Notes: generated from the sequence alone by a model not told the origin. DNA of 64,000 nucleotides from a virus (IMGVR_UViG_3300046528_000074:1-64000); one strand, 5' to 3'. Shown: positions 6,099 to 55,984, numbered from the stretch's first letter. Numbers and translations: made by a program.

Positions 6099-6722
6099 CT
6101 ATTTTTGCGCCACCGTTTCATATTCGCGCTCGAGCCGCGCCAATTCCCCCTGCACCTCGTCGTGCACCTCCATGATCAGCTTGCGCGGCACCAGTTCCAG
6201 CTGGGCCTCGTGCACGCCCAGCGCCTCGCCGATGGCGCGCAGGGTCGGGCCGTCGAGGCGCCAATTATCGGTGCGCACGCCGCGGTCCTGCATGCGCAAC
6301 ATGCCGTCCAGCGCCTGGTCGAACAGGCCCTCATACTCCTGGCCGTAACCGCGCAGCGCCAGCGCCTTGCCCATGTACATGTTCAGCACGATGCAGCACC
6401 ACGATTCGTGGCTGGCGCTGCCGCGCGCCATGTTCTCGTAGGCCAGGAATGCATACGACAGGATCGTGCCGAGATCGTCCGGCGTCATCGGCAAGCCGGG
6501 CCGCTGCAATGCGTTCCACAGTTGCATGCAGATGTCGCCCCAGGCGCTGGCGGGCTCGGGCCGGGCCAGCGGCACGAACACAGGCTTGCGGCCATGCAGG
6601 CGCGTCTCGAGCATGCGCCACCAGGTCGAGCCAGGCAGGGCCGGGCGAATCGCCAACGTGAAATTCTCCATCGTGGACATGCCGACAGCATGCCCTTTCA
6701 TCGCTACCATTTCCATTTTCAT
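6099..6722 (-). CDS. Hypothetical protein
   Basis: ATGA-coupled to upstream gene. Confidence 0.7.
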   Translation of the reverse strand: MKMEMVAMKGHAVGMSTMENFTLAIRPALPGSTWWRMLETRLHGRKPVFVPLARPEPASAWGDICMQLWNALQRPGLPMTPDDLGTILSYAFLAYENMARGSASHESWCCIVLNMYMGKALALRGYGQEYEGLFDQALDGMLRMQDRGVRTDNWRLDGPTLRAIGEALGVHEAQLELVPRKLIMEVHDEVQGELARLEREYETVAQK

Positions 6723-7144
6723 ACTTCCTTGATGTGAATGCCGTGCACCGTCGCCATGAGATGCTTCTTAATGCGATAGGCGGCCAGCTTGCGCGTTGGC
6801 CGGCTTTTCGTGTCTTCGACCACCAGCTGGCCATCCTGCAGGTAGGTGAAGTCCGCAAAGTAGCGCAGCGCCGGCTTTTTCTTCGCCTCGCCCGCCAGGT
6901 GCACCGCCGGCGCCAGCACGAAACTGACCTGGCGGCGCAGGTCGGTGATCTTGCCGGCCGCCTGCATTATCTGCAGCGTGTCCCAACGGCGCGCCTCCTT
7001 CCCGCTGTCGTGCACGATGCCGTCCTGCTCGACTTTCGTGTTGCGGTACTTGCTGGGCGCGGGCGCCGCCGGGGCGGACGGGGCTGCGCGCCGGGCCTGC
7101 GCCTCCAGGTGCTGCGCCAGGACCTTGTCGCCCCAGCGCGTCAT
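6719..7144 (-). CDS. DUF1064-like PD-(D/E)XK nuclease
   Basis: SKYRNTKV...DSGKEARR...YFADFTY...VVEDTKS; start MTRWGDK at 7144. Confidence 0.8.
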   Translation of the reverse strand: MTRWGDKVLAQHLEAQARRAAPSAPAAPAPSKYRNTKVEQDGIVHDSGKEARRWDTLQIMQAAGKITDLRRQVSFVLAPAVHLAGEAKKKPALRYFADFTYLQDGQLVVEDTKSRPTRKLAAYRIKKHLMATVHGIHIKEV

Positions 7145-7398
7145 TTCCCGGACGCCTTGCGCGCCGCGGCCTTCGCGACGGCCGCGCCCGCGTTCATGAT
7201 GCTGATGGTGATGCCGTCGACCTGGCCGTGCAGCATCATGGTCGGCATGCCGTCGAATGCGGCGCTGAACGCCTGGACATCCTCGGGCGTGATCTTGATG
7301 GGCTGGCCGCCGTTGACCTTCCACAGCGCGATCATCAGCAATTTGTCGCGCTCGGCGTGGCCGCCGTTTGTCAGCGGGTGATTGTTCAGTTTTTGCAT
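7141..7398 (-). CDS. Hypothetical protein
   Basis: AGGA RBS; coupled to downstream gene. Confidence 0.65.
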   Translation of the reverse strand: MQKLNNHPLTNGGHAERDKLLMIALWKVNGGQPIKITPEDVQAFSAAFDGMPTMMLHGQVDGITISIMNAGAAVAKAAARKASGK

Positions 7399-7441: not shown

Positions 7442-7996
7442 TTATTCGGCGCCCTTGTTGCGCTGCTCGCGCATGCGCATCAGTGCATACCCCTCAAATT
7501 CCCACAGCAGGGCCTCGGCTTTTCGCATCGCATCCTCGCTGGCATATTGGACGCTTTTCGCCGCGTCGAAGCTGGCCGGGTCCACGCACGCGGAAAAGCC
7601 CTGGCCGACGACAAAGCCGTTGGGCAATGCCGCCAGCGCCACCGTGCTGGTCGTGCCCGGGAAGCGCTGGCAGGTAATCGTCACGCTGGCCAGCAGTGCC
7701 TCGATGCGCTCGGCCGGTACGCGGTTTTCCGCCAGCGGCGGCAGGGCCGGCTTGTGCATGCCATCGAACACGATGGCGGCCATCGGATAGCCATGCGGCA
7801 GCGGGTTGAAGCGCGACGGCTGCGTGCGCACGTAGTAGTCGCCGACGCGCGCGGTCTTGAACAGGCTGGCCGGCTCGTAGACCTGGAAGCCATCGTCCAG
7901 CGTGATCTCGTAGTAGCCGTCGTCGTGGTCGGTCATCATGCGCAGCGCCGTGATCTTTGCGGCCCTTACTTGCTGGGTGGGGTCGTACAGTTTCAT
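7442..7996 (-). CDS. Fusion: uncharacterised N-domain + N4 gp49/Sf6 gp66 (Acb4-like) domain
   Basis: C-terminal TVALAALPNGFVV...SACVDPASFD...LWEFEGYAL is the gp49/66 signature. Confidence 0.75.
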   Translation of the reverse strand: MKLYDPTQQVRAAKITALRMMTDHDDGYYEITLDDGFQVYEPASLFKTARVGDYYVRTQPSRFNPLPHGYPMAAIVFDGMHKPALPPLAENRVPAERIEALLASVTITCQRFPGTTSTVALAALPNGFVVGQGFSACVDPASFDAAKSVQYASEDAMRKAEALLWEFEGYALMRMREQRNKGAE

Positions 7997-8053: not shown

Positions 8054-8545
8054 TCAGGCTGCGGTGGCCGACGCAAACGCGGCGATGCGGTCGCCGAGGA
8101 TGTCCGAGTACATCGCCATCGTCGCGGCCTGCTGGTCGAGGCGATTGCGCTCCTCGGCATCAAGGCCGGCGAAGATCGACGTACGGGTGAAGTCGACGAG
8201 CTTCGCCAGGCGCTCGTCCAGTTCGGCCTTCTCGTCGACGACACGCTGCTGGTGCGGCTGCATCGAGCTGTAGCCGGGATGCGCGGCGCCCAGTGCCGGC
8301 CGCTGGTCTGCCGGGTCGTACGTCGCCGCGAAGATGTCCGGCTTGCACGGGTAGTGCTCGCCTTTCACGCCGGTGATGATCCAGTCGCCCGGGGACACGC
8401 GCAGTTCTCCTTCGAGCGTGTCGATCAGCGGCGTGCCGTTGGGGTAGACGTGACCACCCTTGTCCCAAGCGCGAACGGCGGGATGGTCGCCGTCCTTGAA
8501 CCACTGCGTTGCCTCGATCACTACCGGCTTTTTGCGAAATTTCAT
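8054..8545 (-). CDS. Fusion: KKPVVIEA/YPCKPDIF domain + crAss001_48-like (Sequestin-like) helical domain
   Basis: N-part FRKKPVVIEATQW...TLEG...GDWII...YPCKPDIF; C-part PHQQRVVDEKAELDERLAKL...QAATMAMYSDILGDRIAAF. Confidence 0.75.
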   Translation of the reverse strand: MKFRKKPVVIEATQWFKDGDHPAVRAWDKGGHVYPNGTPLIDTLEGELRVSPGDWIITGVKGEHYPCKPDIFAATYDPADQRPALGAAHPGYSSMQPHQQRVVDEKAELDERLAKLVDFTRTSIFAGLDAEERNRLDQQAATMAMYSDILGDRIAAFASATAA

Positions 8546-8554
8546 GTCTGCCTT

Positions 8555-8917
8555 TCAGGTTGGTGCTGCGGGTGGTGCGCTCGCGCGCGAAATGGTCTCG
8601 TTGGCCTTGCGGCTGGCCATCATCTGGTCCGCGTAATGCCAGCGCCAGGAAAAATATTTCTTCTCGCGCTGGCGGTCCCGCCACGCGGCATGCTTGCCCT
8701 TTGCGTCGAGCCAGATTGAGTAGAATTCCGCGACTTCCCGTGATGCGTTGGCGATCATGCTGATGCCCTCCTTGAGGTCGGAGAACTGGGCCGATTGCAA
8801 TGCACTCCAGTGCGCCGGGACGTCGGGAATGGCCGGCATGTCCCCGCTGTACTCGCCCTTGAACCAGTCAGGGATTGGCAGCGGCGCGTGCGCGGCAAAG
8901 TAGTCGCGATCATTCAT
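8555..8917 (-). CDS. Conserved phage protein (RDYFAA family)
   Basis: DRDYFAAHAP...YADQMM motifs. Confidence 0.75.
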   Translation of the reverse strand: MNDRDYFAAHAPLPIPDWFKGEYSGDMPAIPDVPAHWSALQSAQFSDLKEGISMIANASREVAEFYSIWLDAKGKHAAWRDRQREKKYFSWRWHYADQMMASRKANETISRASAPPAAPT

Positions 8918-9640: not shown

Positions 9641-10402
9641 TTATGCCTTGTCAGGATTGAAATAGATCGACTTGCGCCCGTTCGGATTGGCGCGGGCTTC
9701 GTAATCGCGCACCTTCTGGGCCGCCTCTTCGCGCAGGCGCTCGTCGCGCTCATCCACCTGCGGCGCCACCTCGTCGGCATTTCCGTACGGGTTAAGAATC
9801 GATTTGCAGGCGTCCAGCAGGCGCACCAGGCCGTCCGGGCGCCCTTCCTGCTGCGCTCCCTCAAACCCGAGCGCCAAATGCGCTGGCGGGCCTGCAATCA
9901 AGCCGGCATGCACGGCGCGCGCCACGACCAGCTGGCGCCGCTCGACATCCCAGCCCTCGGAGATCGACCAGGCCGCCGGCCGGTTGTTGATGCGCGCCGC
10001 CTGCACCAGCCGGGCATAGGCATCCTTGAACGCCATGCGCGCGCCGATCTCGTCGCCGGAATCGAATACCGGGCGGCACAGGTTGAACGCCTCCTGGATC
10101 TCGCCGGTCCACATCACGCTGTCGCGCTCGTCGCGGCTGGACAGGGCGATGGCCCAGGCTTCGTTCTCGTCGGGGCGGCCGTCCAGCAGGCGGCAGCGGG
10201 CGGCGATGCTGTTGGGGACTGGCGCGAAGTCGGGGCGCTCGGTCGCGTAGGCAGCAAACGCCTGGCCGATGGTGGCCGGCGAGAACGGCGCCAGCGCCTT
10301 GAACCAGAACGCCGTCGTGTCCGTGTCGGGCCGGGGCTTGCCGTAGCCCATCAGGAAGTCGCCCAGCAACTTGGCAAATTCAGGGAGGTCATTGCTGCGC
10401 AT
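9641..10402 (-). CDS. Replication accessory protein (helicase-loader / P-like position)
   Basis: Directly follows the initiator; FWFKAL...FAPVP...DGRPDENEAWAIA pattern. Confidence 0.6.
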   Translation of the reverse strand: MRSNDLPEFAKLLGDFLMGYGKPRPDTDTTAFWFKALAPFSPATIGQAFAAYATERPDFAPVPNSIAARCRLLDGRPDENEAWAIALSSRDERDSVMWTGEIQEAFNLCRPVFDSGDEIGARMAFKDAYARLVQAARINNRPAAWSISEGWDVERRQLVVARAVHAGLIAGPPAHLALGFEGAQQEGRPDGLVRLLDACKSILNPYGNADEVAPQVDERDERLREEAAQKVRDYEARANPNGRKSIYFNPDKA

Positions 10403-10403
10403 C

Positions 10404-11354
10404 TCATTGCTCCATGTCGATGGTGTTGGGGTCGTCGTCGGCCCGGGCGCCGCCGTGGCCGTTCAGCTTGTCGAGCGCGGCCTGCACGTCGGCCAGGTAC
10501 TGTTCTTCCGTTTGCGGCACGCCCACGACTTGCGCGCCCGGCTTGGCGCGGGCCGTGTTGATGAAGCGGTCGATCTGGTCGGCGTTGCGCAAGATGACGT
10601 TCAAGCCGTTGTACTTTTGATTATTTTCGTTGGCGCCCATGTTGTGCGGCGTCAGCGAACAGCCCTTGATCGCCTCGCAGATTTCGCGCGGCGAATAGTT
10701 CTTCAAGGCGTTTTCGATCAGCTTGCGGCGCGACTTGTCCAGCTTGCTGCCTGGCGAACTCATGCGCTTGCACCAGTAGTCGAAAACTTCCTGGATCGGG
10801 TCGACCTTGAAAGGCGTGTCGGGCTTTAGCTCGACAAGTGTTTTTGGTTCTGGTTCTGGCTCTGGTTTAGGTTCTGGCTTGGTTCTGGTTTTCGTACTGA
10901 GTGCGAAAGGGTTCTCGAAGGGTTCCGGACTGCTTTCAAAAGCGTCAAGTATTTTTGCCGGAAATTTTGGCGAAAAATCCCGCAAAGCCGCTGCCAGTGC
11001 GGCTTTCACCATGTCCGGACAGTTCAATGAACTGAACATTTTGCCAGCAGCCAACCCCACATTCGGGTTCTCGAACTGGTTCCACTTCAAGTAGTGCCGA
11101 ATCAGCACCCAAAACGTCCTTTCGCAACGGTATGCGAAACCCTTTGCGAATAGTTCCTCAAACCCTTTGCGGACCCTTTCGGGCTTCCATTGAAGATCAT
11201 CAGCAGCATAGGCATCGGTCAGCCGGAAGCATCCAAGCATGTTGCCATGCGGGCAGGTCATCAGATACAGCGCCAGCGTGCGCCCATCCTCCGACATGCC
11301 GCGCGCATCCTCGCTTGTCCAGAATGCGGTGTAGACTTTTCCGTAGTCACGCAT
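10404..11354 (-). CDS. Phage replication initiator (lambda O-like replisome organiser)
   Basis: MRDYGKVYTAFW...LALYLMTCPH N-terminus, internal iteron-like repeats, PEPEPE linker. Confidence 0.8.
   Translation of the reverse strand: MRDYGKVYTAFWTSEDARGMSEDGRTLALYLMTCPHGNMLGCFRLTDAYAADDLQWKPERVRKGFEELFAKGFAYRCERTFWVLIRHYLKWNQFENPNVGLAAGKMFSSLNCPDMVKAALAAALRDFSPKFPAKILDAFESSPEPFENPFALSTKTRTKPEPKPEPEPEPKTLVELKPDTPFKVDPIQEVFDYWCKRMSSPGSKLDKSRRKLIENALKNYSPREICEAIKGCSLTPHNMGANENNQKYNGLNVILRNADQIDRFINTARAKPGAQVVGVPQTEEQYLADVQAALDKLNGHGGARADDDPNTIDMEQ
10904..11181. repeat. Iteron-like repeats, probable replication origin
   Basis: AAACCCTTTGCG at 11137 and 11160, ACCCTTTCG at 11173, inverted CGAAAGGGTT at 10904 and CGAAGGGTT at 10916, in an AT-richer patch. 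Confidence 0.6.
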
Positions 11355-11823: not shown

Positions 11824-12294
11824 TTATTTTCGTTTGGCGATAATTTCATCGCGCACCGGGCGCCAGGCGGCAAAGGCCCGGTCCCAGATGGCGAACTTCT
11901 CGGCGCGGTCGAACTGCGCGCCCTGGTCCAGCTCGTTGTGGCAGGAGCGGCAGCCGGGCACCGTGTAGACGTCGTGCGCCTTGATGCCCTTGCCTTTCCC
12001 GTGGATGGCCTGGTTGCTGTGGCAGGGATCGTGCGCCTGGCCGGTGCAGATGCCAGGGATGCGCAGATAGCACGGCTGGCCGCGGCATAGCTGGGCCTCG
12101 CCCGTCGCCGGGCGCGGGTTGCTGTTGGTCTTGCTGCGCGCGCGCAGCGGCGCCGCCTGGCGGGCCAGCTGGCCGTCGCCGCGCGCCAGCGGCGCCTTGC
12201 GCTTGAACTCCGTGCGCGCTAGCCCTTTCGTCCCTTGTTTCATGGGCGTGGTGCGCTTCAGTTCGCCGCGCTTCATGGGGTTAGAAGCCGCCAT
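11824..12294 (-). CDS. DUF1364/DUF968-like Zn-binding putative nuclease
   Basis: CYLRIPGIC...CHSN...GKGKGIKAHD...GCRSCHNELD. Confidence 0.75.
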   Translation of the reverse strand: MAASNPMKRGELKRTTPMKQGTKGLARTEFKRKAPLARGDGQLARQAAPLRARSKTNSNPRPATGEAQLCRGQPCYLRIPGICTGQAHDPCHSNQAIHGKGKGIKAHDVYTVPGCRSCHNELDQGAQFDRAEKFAIWDRAFAAWRPVRDEIIAKRK

Positions 12295-53822: not shown

Positions 53823-55355
53823 TCAGTATCCTGCGCCCGGGTCATGCGGGCGGAATGGTTCGACGTTGACAGGCGTGTTGTCGACCGGGCGGAACGGCTC
53901 GGCGAAGGTGATCGACAGCGCATCGGCAATGTCAGGGGACAGGCCGCCGCGCTTCTTGATGTTTTCCTTGCTCTCGATCTTGATGCGGCCCTTGCTGTCG
54001 TACGTGTAGCCGGGCTCGACCAGGTCGGCCTGCAGTTCGTCATCATCCGGGATGCGTGCGGGCTTCTCAGCAAACCAGTTGCGCATGCGGCACCACATTT
54101 CGGCGCGCTTGTTCACGTACAGATCGTCCTCGTCCGCGCTTTCGCTGGCCTGCACCGGCACGACGATGTCGCCGTAGTTCAGTTCTTCCAGGCGGTCATA
54201 GACGCCCACGCCCAGCCCGATGATGTCGATGAACACCTTCTGCGGCTTCTCGTCCTCGATCAGCTTGGCCAGGATGCCGGCCACCTGCATCGTGTTGCGC
54301 TTGGCCAGCGTGCGGATCTTCGTGACCACGCGGCCGCGGCGCCACACGATCGCCGTGCGGTCGTCGCCGTAGCGGGCCGGGTCGCAGCCAATGACCAGCG
54401 GGACGTGCGCCTGCGGACCGATGCCCTTTTCCTTGCGCGCGGCCAGGATGTTTGGGATCGGGATCAGGCTGTCGCGCTTGGCCGATACGAACGCCTCGGC
54501 GGCCGTGTTCGGATACTCCTGCTGGAACCGCGTCTCGTCGCCCTTGAAGTCGTCCGCGATCTTGCGGCGCCGGAAGTACAACTGCCCGTCGGTCAGGCCG
54601 AACAGGTGGCGCAGCTCGTCTTCCTCGTCGGTGCTTTGAAAGTCGGCGGGCGGCTCCTTCGTGTATTCCTCTTGCCAGAACCAGGGCACGAAGATGGCCT
54701 GATATTCGGATTCGCCGCGCTCGGCCATGCGCCAGCGCGTATGGAAGTCGCCGCCGACGCCGTTGGCGGTCGACTCCAGGATGATCTCGGTGTCGTCCAT
54801 ATCTGCAATCGCCTGGCCAAGACCTGGCCAAATGGTGTCTGGGTTCGGCCAGAAGCCGATCTCCGAACCGTGGAACAGTTGCAGCGCCTTGCCGCGGCCG
54901 ACCTGCTTGCTGCCGGCCGTCGCGACCGAGTAGCGGCAGTCGAGCCGGTCGAAATACAGTTCCTTGTCGTTCGAGCGGCCCGCGCTGGGCTGCACGAACG
55001 CCGGCAGGTGCTCGTGAAAGCGCTTGGTCATGTTGAACAGCGTGTCGGTCGAGTCCGACAGGTGCGTCAGGATGAAGGCTGACAGACCCTTGCGAAACGA
55101 CAGCTTGTGCATGTAACGCCCTTGCACGTAGGTGCTGATGCCCTGCTGGCGGCCCTTCAGCACCAGCGCGCGGACCTTGCCCTTTTCGCGCAACTGCTTC
55201 TCGATGCGGCGGTGCACGTAGCGCTGGGCCGCGTTCAGTTCGAACGGGACCATCTTGCCGGCCTTGTTCAGCACCTTCAGGCAGCGCGGCGCATAGTATT
55301 CGAAGTCGTCCTTCAGCAGTCGCAGCTTCTCGGCGCGGTCGGCCGCGATCGTCAT
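53823..55355 (-). CDS. terL: Terminase large subunit
   Basis: LKGRQQGIST, FHGSE, ILESTANG, GCDPARYGDD, SPDIADA. Confidence 0.95.
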   Translation of the reverse strand: MTIAADRAEKLRLLKDDFEYYAPRCLKVLNKAGKMVPFELNAAQRYVHRRIEKQLREKGKVRALVLKGRQQGISTYVQGRYMHKLSFRKGLSAFILTHLSDSTDTLFNMTKRFHEHLPAFVQPSAGRSNDKELYFDRLDCRYSVATAGSKQVGRGKALQLFHGSEIGFWPNPDTIWPGLGQAIADMDDTEIILESTANGVGGDFHTRWRMAERGESEYQAIFVPWFWQEEYTKEPPADFQSTDEEDELRHLFGLTDGQLYFRRRKIADDFKGDETRFQQEYPNTAAEAFVSAKRDSLIPIPNILAARKEKGIGPQAHVPLVIGCDPARYGDDRTAIVWRRGRVVTKIRTLAKRNTMQVAGILAKLIEDEKPQKVFIDIIGLGVGVYDRLEELNYGDIVVPVQASESADEDDLYVNKRAEMWCRMRNWFAEKPARIPDDDELQADLVEPGYTYDSKGRIKIESKENIKKRGGLSPDIADALSITFAEPFRPVDNTPVNVEPFRPHDPGAGY

Positions 55356-55984
55356 AGCGAGTCGAGCCAGTCCTCGAGCGTGCCGGCCCCCTTGTTCTTG
55401 CCATCGTCCGACAGGCCGTATGCCTCGCGCTCGAGTGCCACCAGCGTCTTGAGGGTGTCGGCCAGCTTCTTCATGCTGTCCACGCGCGATGGCAGGCTCA
55501 TCGTCTTGTCGAACGCTTCCAGCATCTGCTGGCGGCGACGCTCGGCTGCTTTGTCCACCGGATCGGTGCCCACGATGGGCGGCCCGGCGACCAGGTCGGC
55601 CAACTGCTCGAACAGGTCCTGGTTGAACGTGCCGCGCTCCAGTTCCTCCAGCAGCGCCATGCCCAGCGAGCGCGAGCGCTGGATGTCCTTGCGGTGCGAC
55701 ATCATGACCATGGCCACGACGTCCGCATTGGCCTCGATGATCGCCGACTCCGGTACGCGGCTTTGTTCGCGTACCTCTTTGCGTACCGCTTCGTTGCGTA
55801 CCAGCGCTTCCGCCTTCGCTCTTACCTTTTCGGCAAGATCGCGCTCCCAGTCTTCTTTCTTGGCGCGCTTCCTGATTGCGCCTTCCGACAGCCCATGATC
55901 AGCAGCTATCTGGCGCAAGGACTTCACGCCCGCACGATAGTCGGCCTCGACCTTTGGCCAGTCGATTTGTTTCTGATCGGACAT
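55352..55984 (-). CDS. terS: Terminase small subunit
   Basis: DW..VEADYRAG.KSLRQIA..HGLSEGAIRKRAKKEDW; LEREAYGL. Confidence 0.85.
   Translation of the reverse strand: MSDQKQIDWPKVEADYRAGVKSLRQIAADHGLSEGAIRKRAKKEDWERDLAEKVRAKAEALVRNEAVRKEVREQSRVPESAIIEANADVVAMVMMSHRKDIQRSRSLGMALLEELERGTFNQDLFEQLADLVAGPPIVGTDPVDKAAERRRQQMLEAFDKTMSLPSRVDSMKKLADTLKTLVALEREAYGLSDDGKNKGAGTLEDWLDSL

Follow-up and report, generated by a model that had tools for sequence, protein, structure and literature searches.

A Sequestin domain joined to a widespread PGDYG-like domain in a 163-residue phage protein

The virus record IMGVR_UViG_3300046528_000074 comprises 101,705 bases and is rated complete by CheckV. Within its stretch 1–64,000 (64,000 nucleotides, hereafter the window) we analysed a leftward open reading frame (ORF) coding for a 163-amino-acid (aa) protein, which consists of a PGDYG-like N-terminal domain (N-domain), a flexible linker and a C-terminal Sequestin domain (Table 1). 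The ORF starts with ATG and has the composition of a coding frame, with a G+C content of 0.84 at third codon positions (GC3) against 0.46 at second positions (GC2). An initial annotation of the DNA, which gave no strand, had described a two-domain protein with a short linker and an internal methionine. All of the strings that it quoted were found in the translation (KKPVVIEA at aa 5–12, TLEG at aa 43–46, GDWII at aa 53–57 and YPCKPDIF at aa 65–72), as was the quoted linker PADQRPALGAAHPGYSS at aa 78–94. The two-domain reading was upheld by an AlphaFold2 model of the full-length protein, for which an alignment of 34 orthologues of the fused set (A1) was the input: a beta domain (aa 1–76) and a helical hairpin (aa 97–162) were separated by a stretch (aa 81–92) in which the predicted local distance difference test score (pLDDT) was below 50. 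The full-length predicted template modelling score (pTM) of 0.45 fits a layout of two independently folding modules, and the stretch from Y76 to Q99 varied in length from 7 to 32 residues across the 34 orthologues. Searched as a whole, the protein drew no hit from NCBIfam or PADLOC, and neither PF13876 nor PF11195 was found in it by Pfam.

The C-terminal domain matched the Pfam family PF21825 (crAss001_48) over aa 97–155 with 62.1 bits against a cut-off of 24.8 (E=4.6e-17, profile positions 2–60 of 61), and a second profile search of the record gave the same family at 8081–8257 with 64.3 bits. AlphaFold2 placed helices at aa 97–120 and 130–162 with a pLDDT of 96–98, forming a two-helix hairpin, and the pocket residues R101, E105, Q139 and R153 were each invariant in all 34 orthologues. 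The phage T4 gene for Y16Q is denB.1, whose first residues agree with the published primer. T4 DenB.1 scored 68.6 bits against PF21825 and, by means of a profile built from A1, aligned without gaps to aa 95–157, with its residues R7, E11, Q45 and R59 falling on R101, E105, Q139 and R153, respectively. A pairwise BLASTP comparison of the domain with T4 DenB.1 returned nothing, which counts against the assignment and places the relationship at the profile level; a search of PDB sequences gave no solved relative of the domain. The agreement of the profile score, the predicted fold and the pocket residues identifies the C-terminal domain as belonging to the Sequestin family, as the initial annotation had proposed in likening it to the crAss001_48/T4 Y16Q type, a proposal for which it had looked to a profile match. 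Over its 69 residues it shares with SequestinA, SequestinB and T4 DenB.1 the profile, the hairpin, the start motif Q-x-R-V-x-x-E and the identical spacing of the four pocket residues, together with a phage origin and a position in the early region. Unlike most Sequestins, which stand alone at 60–80 aa, it forms the C-terminal third of a 163-aa protein.

PF21825 was named Sequestin by Tal et al. (bioRxiv 10.1101/2025.07.12.664507) as a sponge for 3' cyclic ADP-ribose (3'cADPR), the signal of type I Thoeris, in agreement with the initial annotation, which spoke of a reported Thoeris-signal sponge. In that report, 10 of the 13 PF21825 proteins tested inhibited type I Thoeris, while none of four other systems was inhibited; 3'cADPR was depleted by purified Sequestin and came off intact when the protein was denatured, and the models gave an antiparallel homodimer with two interface pockets. 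Activity was lost on alanine mutation of SequestinA E12, Q47 or R61, which correspond to SequestinB E11, Q45 and R59, and was kept by the alanine mutant of R8 (SequestinA) or R7 (SequestinB). T4 Y16Q (DenB.1), a bare protein of 64 aa, is an active Sequestin. By the published account, the Acb4–Sequestin protein gp59 of phage Ab09 binds glyco-cyclic ADP-ribose (gcADPR) tightly, and its Sequestin domain was crystallised as an antiparallel dimer, indicating that fused Sequestins are functional. By analogy with these proteins, the C-terminal domain described here probably binds 3'cADPR. That it is instead a Sequestin inactive on type I Thoeris, with another ligand or with lost activity, we regard as unlikely. 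Three of the 13 PF21825 proteins tested by Tal et al. gave no Thoeris inhibition, which speaks for such a member and against 3'cADPR as the ligand; but the four invariant pocket residues are common to the validated T4 DenB.1, and the profile score is comparable to that of the T4 protein.

The internal methionine of the initial annotation exists (Met95), but it does not appear meaningful. It stands at the exact start of the Sequestin homology and aligns to Met1 of T4 DenB.1, as would suit an ORF with two products, the full-length form and a free Sequestin begun at Met95. Against this, just 12 of the 34 orthologues have Met in this column, with Leu, Ile, Val or Ala in 20 others, and no Shine–Dalgarno-like motif was found in the sequence upstream of Met95. 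On these two grounds an internal translation start was rejected, and we consider a second product very improbable.

The N-domain is made up of a conserved strand (RKKPVVIEAxQW), a variable insert (aa 16–40) and a core with the pattern TLEG...PGDWIITGxxGExYPCKPDIFxxTY. It matched phrog_419, a PHROGs family of unknown function, with E=1.1e-32, which, like the PF21825 match, is far beyond chance. Its score against PGDYG (PF14083), itself a family with no known function, was 18.3 bits, below the gathering cut-off of 27, and covered only profile positions 3–39 of 102, so that it falls outside that family as defined. Its PGD(W/Y) turn and the G-x-x-Y-P strand after it correspond to the first half of the PGDYG profile; unlike PGDYG, the N-domain has a single copy of the core, preceded by its own N-terminal strands and the variable insert. 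No family of its own was found for it in Pfam, nor over the aligned part in the ESM Atlas (Pfam 38.1). Tad2 (PF11195), Acb4 (PF13876) and the Acb2/Tad1 hairpin (PF24729) gave no match within the N-domain at E<=1, and in its relatives these sponge domains stand beside the N-domain, not in its place.

The domain is widespread. Among 1.84 billion cluster representatives searched with HMMER, 17,793 were relatives at E<=0.001, of which 6,150 reached E<=1e-10. Of 50,697 cultured-phage records, 870 contained the domain by tblastn, from phages of Mycobacterium (105), Bacillus (104), Staphylococcus (83), Gordonia (81), Streptococcus (76), Acinetobacter (54), Enterococcus (41) and other hosts; it also occurs in two BASEL coliphages and a haloarchaeal virus, and stand-alone orthologues are present in the BASEL phages ChristophMerian and FritzHoffmann. 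When A1 was set beside an alignment of 77 stand-alone N-domain proteins (A2), T43, E45, D54, I57, G59, G62, E63, Y65, F72 and Y76 were invariant in both, and K5, K6, P7, W15, W55, C67, K68 and D70 were nearly so, while the insert between the first strands and the core was hypervariable, ranging from 20 to 68 residues.

Modelled separately, the N-domain gave six strands and one short helix (pLDDT 89, pTM 0.76). Foldseek found no match to the PDB at E<=0.001 for either the full model or the N-domain model. With VIA-align, the best Z-score for the N-domain against 48,161 chains was 2.9; 18 chains reached Z>=2 and none Z>=5, and the matches were generic small barrels, among them a phage L decoration protein, HypC and Tudor-like domains. 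The sole PDB sequences found by a profile search were pyocin tube proteins, at E=1.3, and the 36 matches in BFVD at E<=0.001 were all uncharacterised or named 'PGDYG protein'. Known sponge folds were not among the structural matches of the N-domain, although a shared fold may escape such searches; TadIV-1 is described as two antiparallel helices, against the beta fold modelled here. The lack of fold matches does not show that the fold is new. Relatives with several copies of the core were found by phmmer with aa 1–83, matching PGDYG at E=5e-94 to 3.5e-23. The N-domain is homologous to the repeated core of ~45 residues, of which the giants among these relatives carry up to 16 copies; the match at E=5e-94 indicates that PGDYG is itself a tandem pair of this core. 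Three of these proteins, P0121 (3743 aa, 16 stretches), P0123 (892 aa) and P0125 (1452 aa), have 4–16 PGDYG cores each; P0121 and P0125 also contain annexin repeats, and P0121 an AAA_33/zeta-toxin-like kinase domain.

The tandem pairing of cores in PGDYG hints that single copies may pair, and the sponges found as partners of the N-domain (see below) are all homo-oligomers. Both points would suit an N-domain that helps its sponge as an oligomerising, stabilising, localising or regulatory module, with no target of its own. A prediction of a two-copy N-domain complex scored 0.30 against a mark of 0.42, in a run without controls, and carries no weight here. We consider such a helper role improbable, since 207 of 340 family members examined are stand-alone proteins, Sequestin is by the published account active as the bare T4 protein, the disordered linker differs in length from one orthologue to the next, and the polar residues are strongly conserved in phages of distant hosts, pointing to a conserved ligand or partner.

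The partners of the N-domain were scanned with Pfam in the 120 best N-domain proteins of at least 147 aa (1,983 hits, 2,038 candidates). Nine carried Sequestin (one of them also Acb4), four Tad2, two the Acb2/Tad1 hairpin, one Acb4 alone and one a dATP/dGTP pyrophosphohydrolase; two had other labels that were unconfirmed on recheck, three had only a PGDYG label and 98 had none. Sponges thus accounted for 16 of the 19 proteins with a Pfam label other than PGDYG. Eight proteins, at least one for each partner family, were rechecked, and six of the labels (two Acb2/Tad1 hairpins, one Acb4, two Tad2 and the pyrophosphohydrolase) were above the cut-off, while the other two were not. Three-domain forms occurred in the order N-domain–Tad2–Sequestin (P0031, 33, 34, 35 and 107) and N-domain–Sequestin–Acb4 (P0017). 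Independently, a structure search of the ESM Atlas placed the N-domain at the N-terminus of clusters labelled Tad2-like (432 members), Sequestin (332), WDGH (91), Acb2_Tad1_hairpin (55) and DUF551 (54). Wherever the N-domain and Sequestin occurred together, the N-domain came first (42 of 42 cases).

Close relatives of each module were found in other company. In P0013 an N-domain 91% identical to the one described here is joined to Tad2. Sequestin modules 70–90% identical to ours are joined to Acb4 (P0027, P0032, P0085) or, in the same range of identity, to two other unlabelled N-terminal domains, a helical one of the type FAFAHLP...KLLEAKD (P0036, P0059) and one of the type RFIGTK...GYLVEY...SWSP (P0049, P0052, P0076). 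The linker motif ...GAAHAGYS(T)MQPHQQ... is common to the Acb4-fused forms and to many orthologues with the N-domain, which looks as though linker and Sequestin travelled together as a cassette, and by these identities the shuffling of modules is recent. Fusions of one sponge to another are known from Acb4–Sequestin (Pseudomonas phages Ab09, gp59, and YH6), Tad2–Sequestin (a Comamonas element) and Acb4–Tad2 (Pasteurella phage Pm86), so that the remark in the initial annotation that sponge families are often fused to each other is borne out by the published account in the part available to us. The protein described here resembles the Ab09-type fusions in linking a Sequestin hairpin to another small module, and it resembles the known Acb4–Sequestin fusions further through the ~70%-identical modules of P0027, P0032 and P0085, which have the same linker motif. 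It differs in that its partner is not a known sponge, whereas the published fusions, in the part of the account available to us, join Pfam-labelled families.

Because the N-domain is fused in relatives to Sequestin, Tad2, Acb4 and Acb2/Tad1, it is a candidate for counter-defence. By analogy with these partners it may have an activity against something other than gcADPR or histidine-ADP-ribose (His-ADPR), a proposal that we put forward tentatively. Several results count against it. A less biased sample was drawn from the 150 best representatives at 50% identity, of which 112 were scanned after exclusion of 36 that were short and two already scanned; Sequestin was present in two of the 112, and Tad2, Acb4 and Acb2 in none. 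Other labels in this sample were N6_N4 methylase, PP-binding, HTH_8 and DUF3553, with annexin and zeta-kinase labels in giants. To the preponderance of stand-alone proteins noted above is added the diversity of the fused ones: in the same 340 N-domain proteins, 139 extensions of at least 50 aa fell into 104 BLAST clusters, 94 of them singletons. N-domain matches also lie in genes annotated as nicotinate ribosyltransferase (Curtobacterium phage Yotsuba gp62) or MazG-like pyrophosphohydrolase (Gordonia phage DatBoi gp51) and in a QueE-like gene (A0A8S5S940), annotations that hint at a link of the N-domain with NAD and nucleotide metabolism.

The surroundings of stand-alone copies point the same way. 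We took 80 IMG/VR loci, the best of 567 confirmed among 576 pattern matches, and scanned 150 of their 152 immediate neighbours with Pfam. A known sponge was found once among the 150 neighbours (Acb4, locus L068), and a local Sequestin hidden Markov model found none within 4 kb of the N-domain genes at these loci. The large terminase gene lay directly downstream at no fewer than eight of the 80 loci (L011, L021, L029, L031, L032, L037, L040, L055; see also L033, L052, L070), and the genes directly upstream included a large terminase once and Sf6-type small terminases twice; at terminase loci the other flank was often a small terminase or LexA-DNA-binding-like gene. A position beside the terminase is unexpected for an early counter-defence gene. 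Further neighbours included PhoH, ThyX, a dUTPase-like protein, dGTP/dATP diphosphohydrolase and methylases.

In the laboratory Bacillus phage SBSphiJ, whose record is unannotated, a stand-alone copy is intact at 86 aa and has all of the invariant residues (LT960608 97542-97802; L087:301-558), and its relatives SBSphiJ1-7 likewise have an intact stand-alone copy. Tal et al. (10.1101/2025.07.12.664507) describe SBSphiJ as 'naturally blocked by Thoeris' (type I), and it is also the phage used there against type II. Since it is blocked despite its intact copy, this orthologue does not act as an effective sponge for gcADPR or His-ADPR at its native level, a result that fits an N-domain with a complementary activity, or with none. 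The conserved residues of the N-domain are moreover mostly acidic or aromatic (E45, D54, E63, D70, Y65 and Y76), and the median isoelectric point of stand-alone N-domains is 5.7; this conservation is unlike the positively charged interface pockets of the homo-oligomeric sponges described in the same report, and the cluster of conserved acidic residues could be catalytic. The candidacy of the N-domain put forward in the initial annotation therefore stands in respect of its four sponge-family partners, and is weakened by the ~100 other partners, the single sponge among 150 neighbours and the blocking of SBSphiJ.

These results could also be explained if the N-domain were a general accessory for nucleotides or nucleic acids, acting in metabolism, DNA modification or packaging and unrelated to immunity, its sponge fusions being a product of shuffling in which it is a mere passenger. 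The DNA methylases, the dATP/dGTP pyrophosphohydrolase, the MazG-annotated gene, the QueE-like fusion, PhoH, ThyX and the dUTPase-like protein among its partners and neighbours would be expected of such an accessory, as would the small or large terminase genes flanking it at 11 or more of the 80 loci, the 104 partner clusters and, in the part of the report that we cite, the Thoeris sensitivity of SBSphiJ. Yet four unrelated sponge families recur as partners, two of the architectures forming clusters of hundreds; the N-domain invariably precedes Sequestin; and three-domain forms chain it with two sponges. Joining by chance should be rare, given that the N-domain and relatives of this Sequestin module occur in 870 and 98, respectively, of the 50,697 cultured-phage records. 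We regard the accessory role as rather doubtful.

The gene directly downstream codes for a 184-aa protein that is itself a fusion. Its C-terminal part matched Acb4 (PF13876) over aa 96–173 with 40.8 bits against a cut-off of 27 (E=3.2e-10), and the protein matched phrog_322 with E=7.8e-24. Its unlabelled N-terminal domain was compared with the PGDYG-like domain by BLASTP and hhalign, which ruled out that the two are the same. An Atlas structure search gave a 278-member cluster in which this domain stands alone in viruses and a 70-member cluster in which it is joined to Tad2. It showed a weak resemblance to the domain with which gp52 of Klebsiella phage LASTA begins (E=5.5e-5, in a test of two sequences only). 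LASTA gp52 (L085:1811-2686, 291 aa) combines this first domain with a PGDYG-like domain (aa 113–207) and a Sequestin domain (aa 231–291), whereas Burkholderia phage CSP3 WBF05205 (L086:2267-2692, 141 aa) has a LASTA-type first domain and Sequestin without the PGDYG-like domain; both come from cultured phages and are annotated as hypothetical. LASTA gp52 thus differs from the 163-aa protein in beginning with a third, unrelated small domain, and the CSP3 protein does likewise. The CSP3 gene lies between portal and capsid genes and adjoins a CsrA-like gene. The architectures of the LASTA, CSP3 and 184-aa proteins indicate that Sequestin, Acb4 and Tad2 are hubs joined to several unlabelled small domains. 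The 163-aa and 184-aa genes would form a small anti-signalling pair.

The 163-aa gene belongs to a leftward run of tightly spaced genes, which also holds a YbcO/HNH-type nuclease, a DnaD-like helicase loader and a phrog_6028 gene (Table 1). The run is a replication/accessory (early) region of the kind in which the early accessory genes of temperate phages are located. Three small genes directly upstream gave no match to Pfam or PHROGs; they lie in the same operon and may likewise serve accessory or counter-defence functions. A promoter and terminator scan gave nothing above shuffled controls. Elsewhere in the record, PHROGs identified portal, major head protein, tailspike and endolysin genes and a rightward Erf/exonuclease/NinB recombination block. 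Two giant ORFs in the structural region matched only PHROGs of unknown function, apart from an endolysin-like stretch, and may code for ejected internal virion proteins. A further leftward ORF of 370 aa has DUF2201 putative metallopeptidase and VWA-like domains (PF13203, PF09967) by Pfam, in conflict with PHROGs, which calls its family an HNH endonuclease.

Table 1. Coordinates of the 163-aa ORF, its parts and other features, counted from the first nucleotide of the window
Feature	Coordinates	Strand	Basis
Whole ORF, 163 aa and stop: PGDYG-like N-domain, linker, Sequestin domain	8054..8545	-	ORF call, translation, family matches
N-terminal small beta domain, aa 1-80	8306..8545	-	phrog_419, AlphaFold2 model
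Flexible inter-domain linker, aa 81-94	8264..8305	-	pLDDT, orthologue alignment
Sequestin (PF21825) domain, aa 95-163, two-helix hairpin	8057..8263	-	Pfam, AlphaFold2, pocket residues
AAAGG of Shine-Dalgarno type, 5 nt before the ATG; it overlaps the stop codon of gene 8555..8917, upstream	8551..8555	-	Sequence inspection
Downstream gene, 184 aa: N-terminal domain (aa 1-90) and Acb4 domain	7442..7996	-	Pfam, PHROGs
DUF1064/resolvase-type gene, downstream of 7442-7996	6719-7324	-	
Small upstream gene, 120 aa	8555..8917	-	
Small upstream gene, 160 aa	8930..9412	-	
Small upstream gene, 61 aa	9453..9638	-	
phrog_6028 gene, same leftward run	9641-10402	-	
DnaD-like helicase loader, same leftward run	10404-11354	-	
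YbcO/HNH-type nuclease, same leftward run	11824-12294	-	
Large terminase	53823-55355	not stated	PHROGs
Small terminase	55352-55984	not stated	PHROGs
Giant ORF, 2167 aa	19467..25970	-	PHROGs
Giant ORF, 1389 aa	31866..36035	-	PHROGs
ORF with metallopeptidase and VWA-like domains, 370 aa	881..1993	-	Pfam, PHROGs

On balance we favour, by a cautious judgement, an early two-module counter-defence protein in which Sequestin is joined to an independently acting N-domain. The replication/accessory operon would supply the protein early in infection. By homology, two Sequestin hairpins would pair in antiparallel orientation, giving a dimer with two interface pockets, and these pockets would hold 3'cADPR (1''-3' gcADPR), the signal made by ThsB; with the signal sequestered, ThsA of type I Thoeris would not be switched on. 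The N-domain, autonomous and flexibly tethered, would supply a second activity and would take no part in the Sequestin pocket; it might bind a different small nucleotide-type ligand or a component of host immunity. One polypeptide would thereby cover more than one threat, as Acb4–Tad2 and Acb4–Sequestin fusions do, and together with the neighbouring gene, in which Acb4 is joined to its own small domain, it would make up a compact locus against Thoeris and CBASS, the anti-phage signalling system based on cyclic oligonucleotides. A bolder extension, which we consider doubtful, is that the N-domain represents an eighth, very large family of anti-signalling modules, serving as a sponge or inhibitor for an immune signal other than gcADPR or His-ADPR, and that at least two further unlabelled partners of Sequestin, Acb4 and Tad2, namely the N-terminus of the 184-aa neighbour and the domain with which LASTA gp52 and CSP3 WBF05205 begin, are modules of the same kind.

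Taken together, our results indicate that the 163-aa protein is a bona fide Sequestin in an undescribed architecture. A full-text literature search found nothing on PGDYG/PF14083, and the sponge literature, in the parts examined, makes no mention of the N-domain. The architecture may have been listed earlier in the table of 3,244 Sequestin homologues of Tal et al. (10.1101/2025.07.12.664507), whose Methods mention clusters 'containing an additional domain'. Sequestin was itself found through its fusion to known sponges, according to that report, and the same logic of fusion points to a far commoner domain, the N-domain. If the N-domain is not a counter-defence module, what remains is still a clean new architecture for Sequestin, beside a second fused sponge gene. 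If it is one, part of the escape of phages from signalling immunity would be explained, and fusion screens limited to Pfam would be missing the commonest partners. The N-domain would have escaped the screen that found Sequestin for lack of a Pfam family, and sponge domains would, on the bolder reading, be hubs pointing to a much wider range of counter-defence modules still to be discovered.

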